DNA of 64,000 nucleotides from an uncultured Synergistaceae bacterium. GTDB lineage: Bacteria > Synergistota > Synergistia > Synergistales > Aminobacteriaceae. The DNA is taken from assembly GCA_964439735.1 (NCBI GenBank), contig CAYTQC010000001.1, positions 3,718 through 67,717 on the forward strand, in the 5' to 3' direction. The notes beneath the pieces were generated by a model. That model worked only from the letters and a program-made list of their open reading frames with translations. It was not told the DNA's origin and did no database searches. The position numbers and the translations under genes were made by a program. Position 1 is the stretch's first letter, and each line of letters starts with the position of its first letter. Positions 11,847 through 30,114 of the stretch are shown here, one piece after another.

Positions 11847-13204
11847 GCATCAACGCAAAACTGGGCACCGCCCTGAAATCAGTCAAGGATGAAGGTGCTG
11901 ATTTCGCCGACTTATATTTTGAAATCTCTTCCTCCCATTCATTCATGTACGAAGAGGGAACGTTCGAGGAAATATCTTCTTCCCGGATGGAAGGAGTAGG
12001 GGCCAGGGTCGTTAGAGGAGAGGCGACCTCACACGTCCATGCCCCTGGCGTGGACATCTTCACAGGGTTGTCATGCCTCCGGAAAGCCGCGGCAAACAGC
12101 GGGCTCTCCGGGGCTTCAGTACATGCTCCTTCCCTTCGGATAATGGAAAGAGACAAAACACTTCAGACTCCTGATTTCTCTTTTTTCAGGGAGATAGATG
12201 AAAGGACCCGGAGCGGTTCAATGTGGGTTAAACAGGTTTCCATGAACCTGGACACTGCCTGCAAACGTTTCACGGTCTTCAACAGCGAAGATGTCCTGGC
12301 CGGGGACAAGAGGGAGTACACGCTTTTCAGCGTTGAAGTTGTCGTTGAAAAAGACGGAGTTATTCAGACCGGCTACGAGTCGGAAGCGCTATCAGTGGAC
12401 AGTGTCGAGTTTTTCAAAAGGATGTCTCCGATGAAAACGGCGGAAAAAGCTCTTTTCCGGGCTCTTCTCATGCTGGAGGCCCCTGAATGCCCTGCTGGGA
12501 CGATGCCGGTCCTGCTTTCAGGGGAAGCGGGGGGTACAATGGTTCATGAGGCCTGCGGGCATGGGCTTGAGGCGGATATCATCCAGAAGGACTATTCCGT
12601 CTACAGGGGGAAAATAGGCAGCCGGGTCGCCAGCCCCCTTGTAACTCTCGTGGACGACGGATCCATCCCGGATCTCCTCGGCAGCAGCCGCTGGGATGAT
12701 GAAGGCACTCCCTGCGGGCGCACCGTGCTGATAGAAAAGGGTATACTGAAAGAGTATCTTACCGACAGGACTTCGGCGAGGAAGGACGGGCTTCACCTCA
12801 CGGGAAACGGGAGAAGAAGCTCATACCGATCTGTACCCCAGCCCAGGATGACAAACACGTTTATCGAGCCGGGAACTTCCTCCCCGGAAGAAATGCTGAA
12901 AGGTATGAAGAATGGACTGCTTGTGAAAAAAATGGGAGGCGGGGAAGTGGATCCGACCTCGGGTGATTTTGTCTTCCATGTTACAGAAGGATACCTCGTT
13001 AAGGACGGCAGGGTCACTCAACCGGTCCGCGGTGCAGTCCTTACCGGGAACGGCCCTGAAACCCTCATGAACATCAGGGCTGTCGGAAATGATCTTCATT
13101 TTCTCCCGGGGATATGCGGAAAATCGGGGCAAAGCGTCCCGGTGGCGGACGGACAGCCGTCGCTTCTTCTGGGCAATATTGTTGTAGGAGGTGCCGGAGC
13201 TTGA
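11843..13204 (+). CDS. tldD: TldD/PmbA family metalloprotease, TldD type
   Basis: HEACGHGLEAD metal motif, DDEG, GNGRR, PRMTNTF, CGKSGQSVPV. Confidence 0.92.
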   Translation: MSINAKLGTALKSVKDEGADFADLYFEISSSHSFMYEEGTFEEISSSRMEGVGARVVRGEATSHVHAPGVDIFTGLSCLRKAAANSGLSGASVHAPSLRIMERDKTLQTPDFSFFREIDERTRSGSMWVKQVSMNLDTACKRFTVFNSEDVLAGDKREYTLFSVEVVVEKDGVIQTGYESEALSVDSVEFFKRMSPMKTAEKALFRALLMLEAPECPAGTMPVLLSGEAGGTMVHEACGHGLEADIIQKDYSVYRGKIGSRVASPLVTLVDDGSIPDLLGSSRWDDEGTPCGRTVLIEKGILKEYLTDRTSARKDGLHLTGNGRRSSYRSVPQPRMTNTFIEPGTSSPEEMLKGMKNGLLVKKMGGGEVDPTSGDFVFHVTEGYLVKDGRVTQPVRGAVLTGNGPETLMNIRAVGNDLHFLPGICGKSGQSVPVADGQPSLLLGNIVVGGAGA

Positions 13205-13205
13205 T

Positions 13206-15638
13206 ATGAGCATTTTCAGCAGGAAAAACCAACCCCGGGCGCGGAAGACTTCCCGAAACAGCGGCCGGGGCAGAAAAGGGGGAGGAATTCTCTCCCTTTG
13301 GATAGAAATATTTGTGTTTCTGATTCTCGCTTTTCTCGTATACGCTACAGCATCGCTCTTTTCCCTTCGGACAGGAGCGTGGGGGGAACAGATACGCTTT
13401 TCAATGCTCCGTAACTGGGGCGGTGCCAGCCTTATCCCGCTGCTTTTCGGATGCTACCTTTGCATATCCTATTTCCTGAAAACAGTGTCAAAAGGCTTTA
13501 TACGCCAGTTTTTCGGCACGTTTCTTCTTTTTCTGTGCATTGCACTTCTTTTCGGGTTGTTCCGGATGGCGGGAGTATTCCAGGGAATAGGCGTGCTGTC
13601 TCCGGGATACCTCGGGGACGGTCTTGCGATCTTCCTGACCCGAAGCACTGGTGCGCTGGGGACAATCCTCCTTGCCGCGGCACTTCTCATTCTCTCGTCA
13701 ACATTCTACGGGCTTTTTAACCCGGCTTCGGTAGTCATGAAACTCTCTGCCGTTTTCAAAGTGCTGGCGAGCGACAGGTGGAAAAAAATGCCGTACCCGG
13801 CTGAAGAGAAAAAAAGTTTCCAGGCAAAGATGGATCATCGCAATGAAGACACCGCTGCCGCAGCTCCATCTTCCTTCTCCTACGTGCAATATTCCGAGGA
13901 GGATCACGGGGCGGAGACGCCCGGAAAAACCGGAGAGGACACTCCTGAGGATTCTCCCGTCTCCCTGGAGGAGGTACCGGATCAGGAGCATACAGACCTG
14001 GCAGAACTGCTTTTGCGGCCTCCGGTGAAGAAGGGGGAAAAAAACGAAGAACCTCTCCCCGTTTTTCCGGAAGAAGTCCCGGAAGAAGTCCCTGAAAAAG
14101 TACCCCCGGAGGAGGAACAGGCAGAAGAGACCGGTGATCCCCATGCACTCCCCGAAATAGAATTCAACGAGGTGGAGGGAAGCGAACGAAAGGTGAGGGG
14201 AGCAGCCTTTCCGCCGCCCCTGGATATCTTCGGGCCGAAGCAGCAGTTCGATTCCACGGAGACCAATGAAACAGTGAAAGAACAGGCGGATTCCATCATC
14301 GCAACACTCAACGACTTTGGTGTCCTGGCTGAAATGATGGACGTAGTCATCGGACCTACCGTTATTCAGTTTCAGATCCAGCTCGCGCCGGGAATAAAGG
14401 TCAGCAAAGTGGCAGGATTAAGCAACGATCTTGCTGTGGCTTTGGCCGTTCCCTCACTGCGCATAGAGGCGCCGATCCCCGGGAAAACATACGTCGGCAT
14501 TGAAATTCCCAACCCGAAAAGAAGGGGAATATCCATACGGACTATCCTCGAATCACAAATCTTCCAGGACAACGAGTATGATCTTCCCCTTCCCATGGGA
14601 GTCAGGGTCGATTCGCGGCCCCTGGTCGTCGGACTCGAAGACCTGCCGCACCTGCTCGTGGCCGGAACGACTGGTTCAGGAAAGAGCGTATTCGTGACCA
14701 GCTGCATCACCGGCCTGTGTTCCTACCGTTCACCGGAGGAACTCAGGCTGATCCTCATCGACCCGAAAAGGGTAGAGCTGAGTATTTACGAAAACCTTCC
14801 TCATGTTCTCGCAAAACCTGTGGTTTCTCCCAAAAAAGCAGTCCAGGCACTGGCCTGGGCAGTACGTGAGATGGAGCACAGGTACGAAATATTCGCCCGA
14901 GCCAGGGTCAGGAACCTGAAGTCATATAACCAGTGTGTCCTCCCCAAGGCGCAGCTGCCTCACATCGTTATCGTGGTTGACGAACTGGCTGATCTCATGT
15001 TCACCGCACAGAAAGAAGTGGAGGACTATATCTGCCGTCTCGCCCAGATGGCACGAGCGACCGGAATTCACCTTATCCTGGCGACACAGCGCCCATCAGT
15101 GAATGTCATCACCGGACTTATCAAGGCGAATGTTCCTGCACGGGTCGCCTTTACCCTGCCCTCACAGACGGACTCAAGGACAATCATCGACGTATCCGGC
15201 GCCGAGCGGCTCCTCGGCAAGGGCGATATGCTCTTCGTCAGCTCGAGGTATCCCAGGCCGCTCAGGGTCCAGTCTCCTTTCATCGATGACTCGAAAAGCC
15301 TTGAGATCATCGCCTACCTCAGAAACGTCTTCGGAGACCCTGAATACGTGGACATTGAGGACCAGGGAACAGAGGCCCCGGCAGGCGGAGACACGTCCTT
15401 TGCCGACGATCCCCTCCTCGAAGAAGCGGTGGATATCGTCCTCGACACGGGAATCGCCTCCGCGAGCAGGCTGCAGAGACAGCTTCGGGTCGGATTCACG
15501 AGAGCGGCAAGGCTCATCGATACTATGGAACAAATGGGCATAGTCGGTCCTCCTGAAGGATCGAAACCAAGGGAAATACTTGTGGACGACGAACGGGCAC
15601 GGGACCTTTTGCGCTCAGCAGCCGGCGGAGAGGAATGA
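13206..15638 (+). CDS. ftsK: DNA translocase FtsK/SpoIIIE
   Basis: N-terminal TM helices; PHLLVAGTTGSGKS, DPKRVEL, IVVDELADLM, ATQRPS, gamma domain LQRQLRVGFTRAARLID. Confidence 0.96.
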   Translation: MSIFSRKNQPRARKTSRNSGRGRKGGGILSLWIEIFVFLILAFLVYATASLFSLRTGAWGEQIRFSMLRNWGGASLIPLLFGCYLCISYFLKTVSKGFIRQFFGTFLLFLCIALLFGLFRMAGVFQGIGVLSPGYLGDGLAIFLTRSTGALGTILLAAALLILSSTFYGLFNPASVVMKLSAVFKVLASDRWKKMPYPAEEKKSFQAKMDHRNEDTAAAAPSSFSYVQYSEEDHGAETPGKTGEDTPEDSPVSLEEVPDQEHTDLAELLLRPPVKKGEKNEEPLPVFPEEVPEEVPEKVPPEEEQAEETGDPHALPEIEFNEVEGSERKVRGAAFPPPLDIFGPKQQFDSTETNETVKEQADSIIATLNDFGVLAEMMDVVIGPTVIQFQIQLAPGIKVSKVAGLSNDLAVALAVPSLRIEAPIPGKTYVGIEIPNPKRRGISIRTILESQIFQDNEYDLPLPMGVRVDSRPLVVGLEDLPHLLVAGTTGSGKSVFVTSCITGLCSYRSPEELRLILIDPKRVELSIYENLPHVLAKPVVSPKKAVQALAWAVREMEHRYEIFARARVRNLKSYNQCVLPKAQLPHIVIVVDELADLMFTAQKEVEDYICRLAQMARATGIHLILATQRPSVNVITGLIKANVPARVAFTLPSQTDSRTIIDVSGAERLLGKGDMLFVSSRYPRPLRVQSPFIDDSKSLEIIAYLRNVFGDPEYVDIEDQGTEAPAGGDTSFADDPLLEEAVDIVLDTGIASASRLQRQLRVGFTRAARLIDTMEQMGIVGPPEGSKPREILVDDERARDLLRSAAGGEE
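14067..14102 (+). repeat. 12-bp tandem repeat (x3) in the FtsK linker (PEEV-PEEV-PEKV)
   Basis: CCGGAAGAAGTC CCGGAAGAAGTC CCTGAAAAAGTA. Confidence 0.8.
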
Positions 15639-27649: not shown

Positions 27650-28006
27650 TTGAAGAAGGAAAACCGTTTGAAAAATTTCGAGTTCCTATACGAAGCCCTT
27701 GCTGCAAAAAGAGGTCTCGATATTCTGGCAATGGACCTTGAAGGTTCTGTTTCCATATCAGATACGTTCATACTTGTGACAGGGAACTCGGACATTCACA
27801 TGGGGACGCTCAGGGACGCGGCAGTCGAGGCTCTTCACAATCGGGGGCTCGAGGCCAGGGTCGAGGGAAACGACAGCTCCCAATGGCGTCTCATCGATGC
27901 AGGAGAAATCATCATTCATATTTTCAGCAAAGCAGGAAGAGACCATTATAAGCTCGAAAAAATCTGGGGAGACGCACCGACGTATCATTACGAATATCAC
28001 GACTGA
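27650..28006 (+). CDS. rsfS: Ribosome silencing factor RsfS (Iojap)
   Basis: KRGLDILAMDL, SQWRLIDAGEIIIHIF, YKLEKIWGDA. Confidence 0.93.
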   Translation: MKKENRLKNFEFLYEALAAKRGLDILAMDLEGSVSISDTFILVTGNSDIHMGTLRDAAVEALHNRGLEARVEGNDSSQWRLIDAGEIIIHIFSKAGRDHYKLEKIWGDAPTYHYEYHD

Positions 28007-28029: not shown

Positions 28030-28066
28030 AGACGGCCGCGATATGAAAAGGCGGCCGTCTTTTTTT
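28030..28066 (+). terminator. Intrinsic terminator after rsfS
   Basis: 10-bp stem AGACGGCCGC/GCGGCCGTCT followed by a T run. Confidence 0.85.
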
Positions 28067-28074
28067 AAAACAAG

Positions 28075-28102
28075 ATGTCTTATAATATATCTTATGTTAC
28101 GT
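28075..28102 (+). other. dif: Probable chromosomal dif site (XerC/XerD recombination site)
   Basis: ATGTCTTATAA-TATATC-TTATGTTACGT: 11+6+11 layout; right arm 9/11 to the canonical XerD arm TTATGTTAAAT; lies at the point where gene orientation flips. Confidence 0.8.
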
Positions 28103-28122: not shown

Positions 28123-28902
28123 TCAGACAGAGATCTTTCTGTAATTCTCGTAAATCCCAAGGAAGGAATCCACTTTTAAAGAAGCCCCTCCCACAAGCGC
28201 TCCATCGATGTCGTGCTGGGAAAGCAGATCCAGGGCGTTCGATTCTTTGACACTTCCTCCGTACAGTACGGGAATTTTCGGATGGGATCCGAAATAGTCT
28301 CCGGCCATTTTTGCGGCAAAGGCGCATACTTCCTGGGCGTCCTCAGGACGTGCGTTTTTACCCGTCCCGATTGCCCATACGGGTTCATAGGCAAGGATGA
28401 CCCCGCAGCAGCTCTTATCCTTGTCAAGCCCCGCAAATGCAGACTCAAGCTGTTCCCTGACCACCGCCAGCGTTTTGCCGGACTCCCGCTCGTCAAGAGT
28501 TTCCCCGAAACACAGCACTGTTTTCAATCCGGTTTCAATGGCTTTTGCGAGCTTTTTTGCCACAATTTCGTTGCTTTCGCCAAATATGTGACGTCTTTCA
28601 CTATGTCCGACAAGGACGTGGGAACACCCGACAGCCTTGACCATGTCCATGGAGACCTCTCCTGTGAACGCTCCCCTGTCCTCGAAATAGCCGTCCTGGG
28701 CGCCGCATACGGCTGGTACATCTTCAGGGAGGCTTTTCAGGACCTCTGGTATGGTTAAAAAAGGCGGGAAAAGGCACACCTGGATCATTTCACTGCTGTA
28801 AATATCACCCTGCATTTTATTGCCGAGGGTCCTGCAGAACTCCTCCCCTTCGAAGGGAAGCATATTCATCTTCCAGTTTCCGTAAAGGTAAATCTTTTTC
28901 AT
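28123..28902 (-). CDS. tpiA: Triosephosphate isomerase
   Basis: GNWKMN, GAFTGEVS, GHSERR, AYEPVWAIGTG, YGGSVK, LVGGASL. Confidence 0.97.
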   Translation of the reverse strand: MKKIYLYGNWKMNMLPFEGEEFCRTLGNKMQGDIYSSEMIQVCLFPPFLTIPEVLKSLPEDVPAVCGAQDGYFEDRGAFTGEVSMDMVKAVGCSHVLVGHSERRHIFGESNEIVAKKLAKAIETGLKTVLCFGETLDERESGKTLAVVREQLESAFAGLDKDKSCCGVILAYEPVWAIGTGKNARPEDAQEVCAFAAKMAGDYFGSHPKIPVLYGGSVKESNALDLLSQHDIDGALVGGASLKVDSFLGIYENYRKISV

Positions 28903-28920: not shown

Positions 28921-30114
28921 TCAGTCCGTTATGTACAGCGGTGTTATCCCGGGAAGCGCCTTGCCTTCGCAGAATTCAAGGCTTGCACCGCCTCCGGTGG
29001 AAACGTGGGATACCGACCCGTCAAAACCGAGCTGTTTTGCCGCAGCAGCGGTATCTCCCCCGCCAACGACGGTAACGCCTCCCTTTCTGGTGCATTCGGC
29101 AACTCCTTCAGCGATAGTTTTTGTGCCGCCTGCAAACACCGGATTCTCGAAAACACCCATGGGGCCGTTCCAGAGAACCGTCCTTGCGGAAGCAATTTTC
29201 TTCGAGAAAAGGGCCGCTGTCTCAGGGCCGATATCAAGCCCCATCATTCCATCGGGGACCTTGTCTGCGGGAACGATAGTCTCACCCGTGGCGATGTCCG
29301 GCGATGGACCGGCAACCACGTCCACCGGAAGCAGTATCTCCACTCCGGCTTTTTCCGCCCTTTTCATCATCTCGGATGCGAAATCCGCCTTTTCCGCCTC
29401 GAAGAGGGATTTTCCTATACTCCCGCCCCTTGCCTTCAGGAACGTGAAGGCCATTCCTCCGCCGATAAGTATGGCGCTGGCCTTGTCCATAAGGTTTTCC
29501 ACAACGCCGATCTTGTCCGAAACCTTTGCTCCTCCGAGAATGATGACAAATGGCTTTTCAGGGTTTTCACTCACTGCGGAGAGCATGTTGACTTCCCTTT
29601 CAATCAGCGCACCTGAAAAGGAAGGAAGGAACTCCGTGATTCCGTTCGTGGACGCATCAGCCCTGTGGGAAGCACTGAACGCATCCATGACGAACACATC
29701 AAAGGGGGCTGCAAGTTTTTCCGAAAACGACCTGTCGTTCTCCTGCTCTTCGGCATGAAACCTCAGGTTCTCCAGGACAAGCACACTGCCTTTCGGAAGA
29801 GAATCCATGGCATCCTTCACTTTCGGGCCGATACACTCATCGCAGTAGACGACAGGTACACCGTAAAGTTTTTGTGCTTCGGGGGCCACAAGGGACAGGG
29901 ACATTTCAGGGACGCGCTTTCCCTTGGGGCGCCCAAGGTGAGATGCCAGAGCAACCTTTGCCCCCGCTTCCAGGAGGGCTTCGAGAGTCTTTCTGTGAGC
30001 CTCTATTCTCGTTGTGTCCGTAACCTTTCCATCTTTCAGCGGGACATTGAAGTCGACCCTCAACAATACTTTTTTCCCCTTGACGTCCTCTTTTCTGAAG
30101 CTTCGCAGTTTCAT
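28921..30114 (-). CDS. pgk: Phosphoglycerate kinase
   Basis: RVDFNVP, SHLGRPKG, LENLRF, GGAKVSDK, WNGPMGVFE, STGGGASLE. Confidence 0.97.
   Translation of the reverse strand: MKLRSFRKEDVKGKKVLLRVDFNVPLKDGKVTDTTRIEAHRKTLEALLEAGAKVALASHLGRPKGKRVPEMSLSLVAPEAQKLYGVPVVYCDECIGPKVKDAMDSLPKGSVLVLENLRFHAEEQENDRSFSEKLAAPFDVFVMDAFSASHRADASTNGITEFLPSFSGALIEREVNMLSAVSENPEKPFVIILGGAKVSDKIGVVENLMDKASAILIGGGMAFTFLKARGGSIGKSLFEAEKADFASEMMKRAEKAGVEILLPVDVVAGPSPDIATGETIVPADKVPDGMMGLDIGPETAALFSKKIASARTVLWNGPMGVFENPVFAGGTKTIAEGVAECTRKGGVTVVGGGDTAAAAKQLGFDGSVSHVSTGGGASLEFCEGKALPGITPLYITD

Follow-up and report, generated by a model that had tools for sequence, protein, structure and literature searches.

The gap between the convergent genes rsfS and tpiA in the genome of an uncultured Synergistaceae bacterium raises the question of whether it holds the site at which this organism resolves its chromosome dimers. 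The window, by which we mean the whole stretch of 64,000 nucleotides that was analysed, lies on contig C1 of a draft genome of 308 contigs and 2.18 Mb, which is 92.6% complete and leaves about 7% of the sequence unseen. The gene for ribosome silencing factor, rsfS (27650-28006, + strand; TIGR00090, 86.6 bits against a cut-off of 56.9), is the last gene of the left-hand + block. It is followed by an intrinsic terminator, read directly from the sequence (28031-28066, + strand), which consists of a GC-rich hairpin with a 9-bp stem and an 11-nt loop (28031-28059) and a run of seven T residues (28060-28066). This hairpin was missed by the terminator scan, in which the loop was limited to 8 nt. On the other side, the gene for triose-phosphate isomerase, tpiA (28123-28902, - strand; TIGR00419, 169.3 bits against a cut-off of 130.6), is the last gene of the right-hand - block. 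Upstream of tpiA lies pgk (28921-30114, - strand), labelled from its translation only, in the syntenic block that flanks the site throughout the phylum; pgk was also found by tblastn beside tpiA and the site in relatives. Between the two convergent genes stands the 28-mer ATGTCTTATAATATATCTTATGTTACGT (28075-28102, + strand), which begins 8 bp past the T run of the rsfS terminator and ends 20 bp short of the tpiA stop codon. The preliminary description had placed a candidate dif site directly after the rsfS terminator in this convergent spacer, and the 28-mer stands there exactly as written. It had added that no element is inserted here, with which the two short gaps, and the lack of a second dif-like site in the genome, agree.

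In the 28-mer a 6-bp central region is flanked by half-sites of 11 bp each, which are in partial dyad. Set in register with the dif sites of E. coli and B. subtilis, the left arm ATGTCTTATAA (28075-28085, + strand) is the putative XerC-binding half-site, the central TATATC (28086-28091, + strand) would be the zone of strand exchange, for which the phylum pattern is T-[A/G/T]-T-A-T-C, and the right arm TTATGTTACGT (28092-28102, + strand) is the putative XerD-binding half-site. The arms show partial inverted symmetry, with 5 of 6 inner positions complementary (inner TTATAA and TTATGT). The identities counted by hand earlier came out the same when recomputed: 9/11 for the XerD arm of E. coli and, for B. 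subtilis, 7/11 in the left arm and 5/6 in the spacer. E. coli dif (GGTGCGCATAA-TGTATA-TTATGTTAAAT), which is served by XerC, XerD and FtsK, resembles the site in its 28-bp length, its 11-6-11 layout, the inner ATAA/TTAT and the XerD arm, as well as in its single copy at the terminus and in being accompanied by two Xer paralogues and a gamma-bearing FtsK. In contrast, the left arm here has only 5/11 identities to that of E. coli, the spacer ends in C and not A, the right arm ends in ACGT and not AAAT, and the genes around the site are strongly co-oriented, in a layout like that of Firmicutes. With B. subtilis dif (ACTTCCTAGAA-TATATA-TTATGTAAACT), the site of CodV and RipX, it shares 20 of 28 positions (the right arm contributing 8/11) and the convergence of genes on the site, while the two differ at position 6 of the spacer and at positions 7, 9 and 10 of the right arm; another difference from B. 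subtilis is the place of ftsK, at 12-15 kb from dif in most of the Synergistota.

Systems with a single recombinase, XerS/difSL of Lactococcus and Streptococcus and XerH/difH of Helicobacter and Campylobacter, also resolve chromosome dimers at a terminus site (PMC5357621). Their sites are atypical, with a length of 31 bp and an 11-bp spacer, or with arms of 11 and 10 bp, and xerS adjoins its own site (PMC5357621). The Synergistota site differs from these in that it has the canonical 11-6-11 form and in that two recombinases are encoded in the genome, away from the site.

Whether such a sequence could have arisen by chance between two convergent genes was considered with the uniqueness of the 28-mer. 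Intergenic DNA is AT-rich, and the 28-mer is 3 positions off the general dif consensus; both points speak for chance. With this general consensus the 28-mer was nonetheless the best match in the whole draft (3 mismatches), the runner-up having 4 mismatches and no credible right arm. With the phylum consensus the 28-mer came out at 0 mismatches, and the runner-up in the genome at 7. Neither scan of the draft genome yielded a better dif elsewhere, and the check for a single copy that had been proposed at the outset gave one site in the 2.18 Mb. When the window was shuffled, none of 100 shuffles contained a match with 3 or fewer mismatches.

The remaining evidence against chance came from conservation across the Synergistota. 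At 3 or fewer mismatches the 28-mer was present in 21 of the 41 nearest genomes and in 9/9 genomes of the same genus, always in one copy. With a degenerate pattern, 177 of the 268 phylum genomes gave a match (129 of the 176 of high quality), nearly always in one copy, while the reversed control pattern gave 0 everywhere; the search for orthologous sites in other Synergistota, suggested in the preliminary description, thus returned single-copy sites across the phylum. When 70-bp flanks were aligned on each side, no similarity extended past the 28 bp, and this held within the genus too. Chance origin is ruled out by these conservation data, and the probability that we leave to an accidental AT-rich sequence is practically nil.

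The 146 listed sites do not vary at positions 2-5, 8-11, 18-19 and 21-22, although these sites were picked with the motif itself and the conservation is therefore somewhat overstated. The final C of the spacer, where E. coli and B. subtilis have A, occurs in 143 of the 146 listed phylum sites. In the right arm TTATGT is almost invariant across the phylum and the outer 4 positions vary, with C at position 26 in 124/146 listed sites and no conservation of the G at position 27. The earlier remark that the CG of the right arm is atypical therefore holds for the G only, since the C is common in the phylum. A similar division applies to the suggestion of a lineage-specific variant: the spacer-end C and the C at position 26 are indeed traits of the phylum or order, while a deep-branching family carries the canonical right arm TTATGTTAAAT. 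From this last observation it follows that the right-arm ending 'AC' is derived in the order of the window.

The genera g51, g52 and g53 of family f3, together with family f13 (g76), were observed to encode XerC and XerD matching at full strength, with the motif mostly absent within 3 mismatches. The few matches in these lineages read ...AATAAATCTTATGTC..., and their dif has probably diverged.

The position of the site relative to replication was analysed next to its sequence. The cumulative GC-skew maximum of contig C1, at single-base resolution, lies at C1:31688 (window position 27971), 104 bp before the site, which bears out the coincidence with a skew extremum that the preliminary description had proposed to check. 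Skew is +0.049 to the left of the site and -0.085 to the right, and the swing is the largest among all contigs; a switch from positive to negative skew on the top strand is the signature of a terminus. Long open reading frames number 24 on the + and 2 on the - strand to the left, and 2 on the + and 30 on the - strand to the right, such that two nearly fully co-oriented blocks converge on the site. Skew can be taken as a replication marker in this genome because dnaA (contig C6, 16989-18284, outside the window) lies at the cumulative skew minimum of its contig (17382). This place on C6 is the probable replication origin of the genome, and the distance from origin to site is beyond the reach of a 308-contig draft. 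In genes on the wrong strand the sign of the skew agreed with replication, in a sample of only 445 and 573 G+C bases. Words that might guide FtsK were also counted. The word GGGNAGGG faces the site in 143 copies and faces away from it in 86, with G-rich control words equally or more biased, and GAGAAGGG has 22 toward and 26 away. For KOPS/SRS polarity as a whole (GGGNAGGG, GAGAAGGG and GAAGAAG; G000 and 12 relatives) no bias above that of G-rich control words was seen.

The same terminus test was carried to 14 relatives, for each of which 20-40 kb was fetched on either side of the motif. In 9 of the 14 the local cumulative-skew maximum fell within -409 to +227 bp of the motif (G035 +54, G028 +227, G002 -166, G031 +63, G019 -71, G020 -409, G017 +107, G013 -32 and G062 +130 bp). 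In G033, G039, G172, G044 and G160 no clean sign change was seen at the motif within the 20-40 kb, which suggests a recent rearrangement or insertion beside dif. Each of the five has the motif once, and in three of them (G033, G039 and G172) it was observed to lie roughly opposite dnaA despite the missing switch. In all 8 of 8 closed or near-closed chromosomes the shorter arc between dnaA and the motif spans 40.2-50.5% of the length (50.5, 46.6, 40.3, 48.2, 44.5, 45.0, 40.2 and 43.2%). The strand of the motif relative to dnaA varies, being the same in G033 and G031 and opposite in G035. E. coli dif works in either orientation, and the variable strand agrees with this.

The constancy of the neighbouring genes allows another reading, in which the 28-mer would be a conserved element at the 3' end of rsfS or tpiA, for instance part of a terminator, an RNA stability element or an operator, its likeness to dif being that of any AT-rich partial palindrome. 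The arrangement of rsfS, the site, and the opposed tpiA and pgk is common to most families, and the same rsfS/tpiA gap thus recurs; the 28-mer contains a TATAAT hexamer and probably lies within the 3' untranslated region of tpiA. However, a single copy of the site was also found with neither rsfS nor tpiA within 1.5 kb (G019, G020, G010 and G011). G028 has the site with tpiA alone, and in G033 rsfS is 1 kb off and tpiA is absent. As the site is also present where neither gene is nearby, it is no appendage of rsfS or tpiA. Its position follows the skew switch and is opposite dnaA, and the site was lost together with XerCD and FtsK-gamma in lineages, described below, that keep tpiA. There was no meaningful Rfam match to a known RNA family at the site and no sigma-70-like promoter. 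We therefore give the reading as a 3'-end element a very slim chance. A further regularity of the neighbourhood concerns ftsK, which stands some 12-15 kb away from dif in many families (G002, G031, G013, G035, G039, G033, G016, G029, G030 and others), G017 being an exception at 66 kb. The terminus region of the phylum is an unusually stable syntenic block that holds both the site and the gene of its activator.

The protein partners expected of a dif site were sought in the genome. It encodes exactly two tyrosine recombinases (PF00589), both Xer-like, each with a SAM-like N-terminal domain and a catalytic domain in which the R, HxxR, H and Y motifs are visible. The first (295 aa), on contig C32, stands in a trmFO-xerC-hslU setting, which is also that of codV in B. 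subtilis, and its best family is XerC at 310 bits, under the NCBIfam equivalog cut-off of 335. The second (304 aa), on contig C146, adjoins a gene that, judged by its translation only, is purine nucleoside phosphorylase-like; this recombinase scored 254 bits as XerD and 253 as XerC, which are not separable by score and lie under the equivalog cut-off (254 against 330). Assignment of the two proteins to XerC and XerD by PDB match was also tried and was dropped, as the top match of both was E. coli XerD (1a0p). The third partner is encoded in the window itself: ftsK (13191-15638, + strand), 12.4 kb from the site, carries alpha, motor and gamma domains (PF17854, PF01580 and PF09397), the last of these, the domain that activates XerD and reads DNA, at 93.4 bits.

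If the 28-mer and these proteins belong together, they might be expected to be present and absent together, and one large genus offered an opportunity to compare them. The genus g16, in the family of the window, comprises 48 species, 35 of them of high quality. The motif was present in 0/48, and the 22-nt core at 3 or fewer mismatches had no match in five of the best g16 genomes. In the genus the best recombinase match stood at 2e-49; elsewhere nearly all genomes reached 1e-62 or better, the exception being the incomplete genome G145 at only 4e-46. A PF00589 search gave no match at all in several g16 genomes of 99-100% completeness, nor any in G024, G129 and G122 of this genus, and serine recombinases were not found in G024 and G086. 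The FtsK gamma domain was likewise present in 0/48, while RecA and the FtsK motor (694-745 aa) are retained in g16. Of the 41 nearest genomes, exactly 2 had no gamma domain, the representatives of g16 and of g7. Two small genera, g7 (0/2) and g27 (0/1), were also without the motif and without a recombinase of Xer grade. Together g16, g7 and g27 carry the motif in 0/51 genomes, a co-loss that represents one to three evolutionary events and not 51 independent ones. Elsewhere in family f1 the motif was found in 52 of 55 genomes, the three exceptions being 77-82% complete, and all 55 had a recombinase match at E <= 1e-30. A decayed dif was looked for after tpiA in g16 and this candidate was rejected, as the junction is absent and tpiA is followed there by a co-oriented gene and not by rsfS. 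By this co-loss the 28-mer is linked with XerC, XerD and FtsK-gamma into a single functional unit. That all four are missing from one large genus is independent computational support for the assignment of the site as dif.

A site bound by Xer-family proteins could still have a main role other than dimer resolution, either as a dock for SMC unloading near the terminus, like the XDS sites to which XerD binds in B. subtilis, or purely as an attachment site for mobile elements. The terminus position and the XerD-like arm would suit the first of these roles or the second, as would copies of the XerC arm and tandem pseudo-sites next to dif in some relatives. Against them, the site here is a full two-arm site with a 6-bp spacer and not a half-site, it occurs once per chromosome, the genome has no other full site that could serve as the real dif, and it holds no inserted element; moreover, such a role would add to dimer resolution and not replace it. 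The chance that the main role lies elsewhere than in dimer resolution is, in our estimate, slim.

The traces in relatives are of several kinds. Directly to the left of dif in G016 (contig C4; L016 1388-1511) a 37-bp unit is repeated 3.4 times in tandem, right up to the true dif. Each unit opens with an exact XerC arm, ATGTCCTATAA, after which come a spacer and a right arm that are foreign, GAGCAC-TATAGAATACT. This array may be the footprint of Xer-mediated integration and excision, or of slippage. An isolated XerC arm with the first bases of the spacer stands about 600 bp from dif on contig C3 of G031 (GTGTCCTATAATG) and about 1231 bp from it on contig C1 of G033 (GTGTCTGATAATG); an exact repeat of 13 bases within 80 kb is unlikely to be due to chance. 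Two full dif-like sites were seen in each of G076 (C46:630 and C5:108), G154 (C321:1719 and C12:3265) and G176 (C1:37490 and C9:51113), for which the integration of Xer-exploiting elements, a second replicon or a metagenome bin of mixed strains could account. Taken together, the XerC-arm copies, tandem pseudo-sites and double sites in relatives hint at Xer-exploiting elements, and the window's own site is unoccupied.

The following features of a dif of the XerC/XerD type were found for this locus: the layout, the single copy, the terminus position, the recombinases, FtsK-gamma and the co-occurrence across lineages. Judged from sequence, the 28-mer is very probably the chromosomal dif site of this Synergistota bacterium, because it is unique, lies at the terminus, is a single-copy element across the phylum with conservation confined to 28 bp, has its three partners encoded, and in some clades these are absent jointly with the motif. 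The original reading as a dimer-resolution site is accordingly supported by its single copy, the nearby skew maximum, the orthologues in the phylum and the XerC, XerD and FtsK-gamma encoded in the genome.

In the model published for E. coli and B. subtilis, a pair of dif sites is synapsed by two protomers each of XerC and XerD, FtsK at the septum moves toward dif and its gamma domain activates XerD first, and XerC then resolves the Holliday junction, which converts the dimer to monomers (PMC5357621, PMC3130261). By analogy with these two organisms, we infer the pairing of arms with recombinases, the order of cleavage and the dependence on FtsK in the bacterium studied here. The XerC encoded on contig C32 would bind the left arm and the XerD encoded on contig C146 the right arm. 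After a crossover between sister chromosomes had produced a dimer, the septal translocase FtsK would pump DNA until the two copies of dif met, the gamma domain of FtsK would switch on XerD for the first strand exchange, and XerC would resolve the Holliday junction to give two monomers.

Kono et al. (2011) predicted dif computationally in 641 organisms of 16 phyla (PMC3025954). In the main text and two supplementary files of that study neither Synergistetes nor Thermanaerovibrio nor Aminobacterium is named, and Dethiosulfovibrio is unnamed in the same two supplementary files (PMC3025954). As far as these parts of the study go, the Synergistota site appears to be missing from its catalogue (PMC3025954). 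A full-text literature search for dif or Xer with Synergist* returned incidental mentions only and no paper describing the dif of the phylum. The Synergistota dif has thus apparently not been catalogued in print.

For this organism the site is an ordinary housekeeping element that marks the replication terminus of an uncultured Synergistota genome. For the phylum, the consensus ATGTCCTATAA-TRTATC-TTATGTTRCNT can serve to orient draft assemblies, to anchor estimates of replication rate from metagenomes and to flag elements that integrate at dif. We tentatively propose, as a possibility about which we remain rather doubtful, that the Synergistota dif is a fixed part of a terminus block that is conserved as such, in which ftsK is some 12-15 kb off and the order is rsfS, dif, tpiA-pgk, and that g16 and two small genera of f1 discarded dif, XerC, XerD and the FtsK gamma domain together while keeping RecA and the FtsK motor. 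If this were true, chromosome dimers would be resolved or avoided in these genera by an undescribed route, for example through another topology of the chromosome, by a recombinase not yet recognised as such or by keeping crossovers down. How a genus that keeps RecA handles its chromosome dimers is thereby made a real question, and the joint loss across this clade is a more interesting lead than the site itself.
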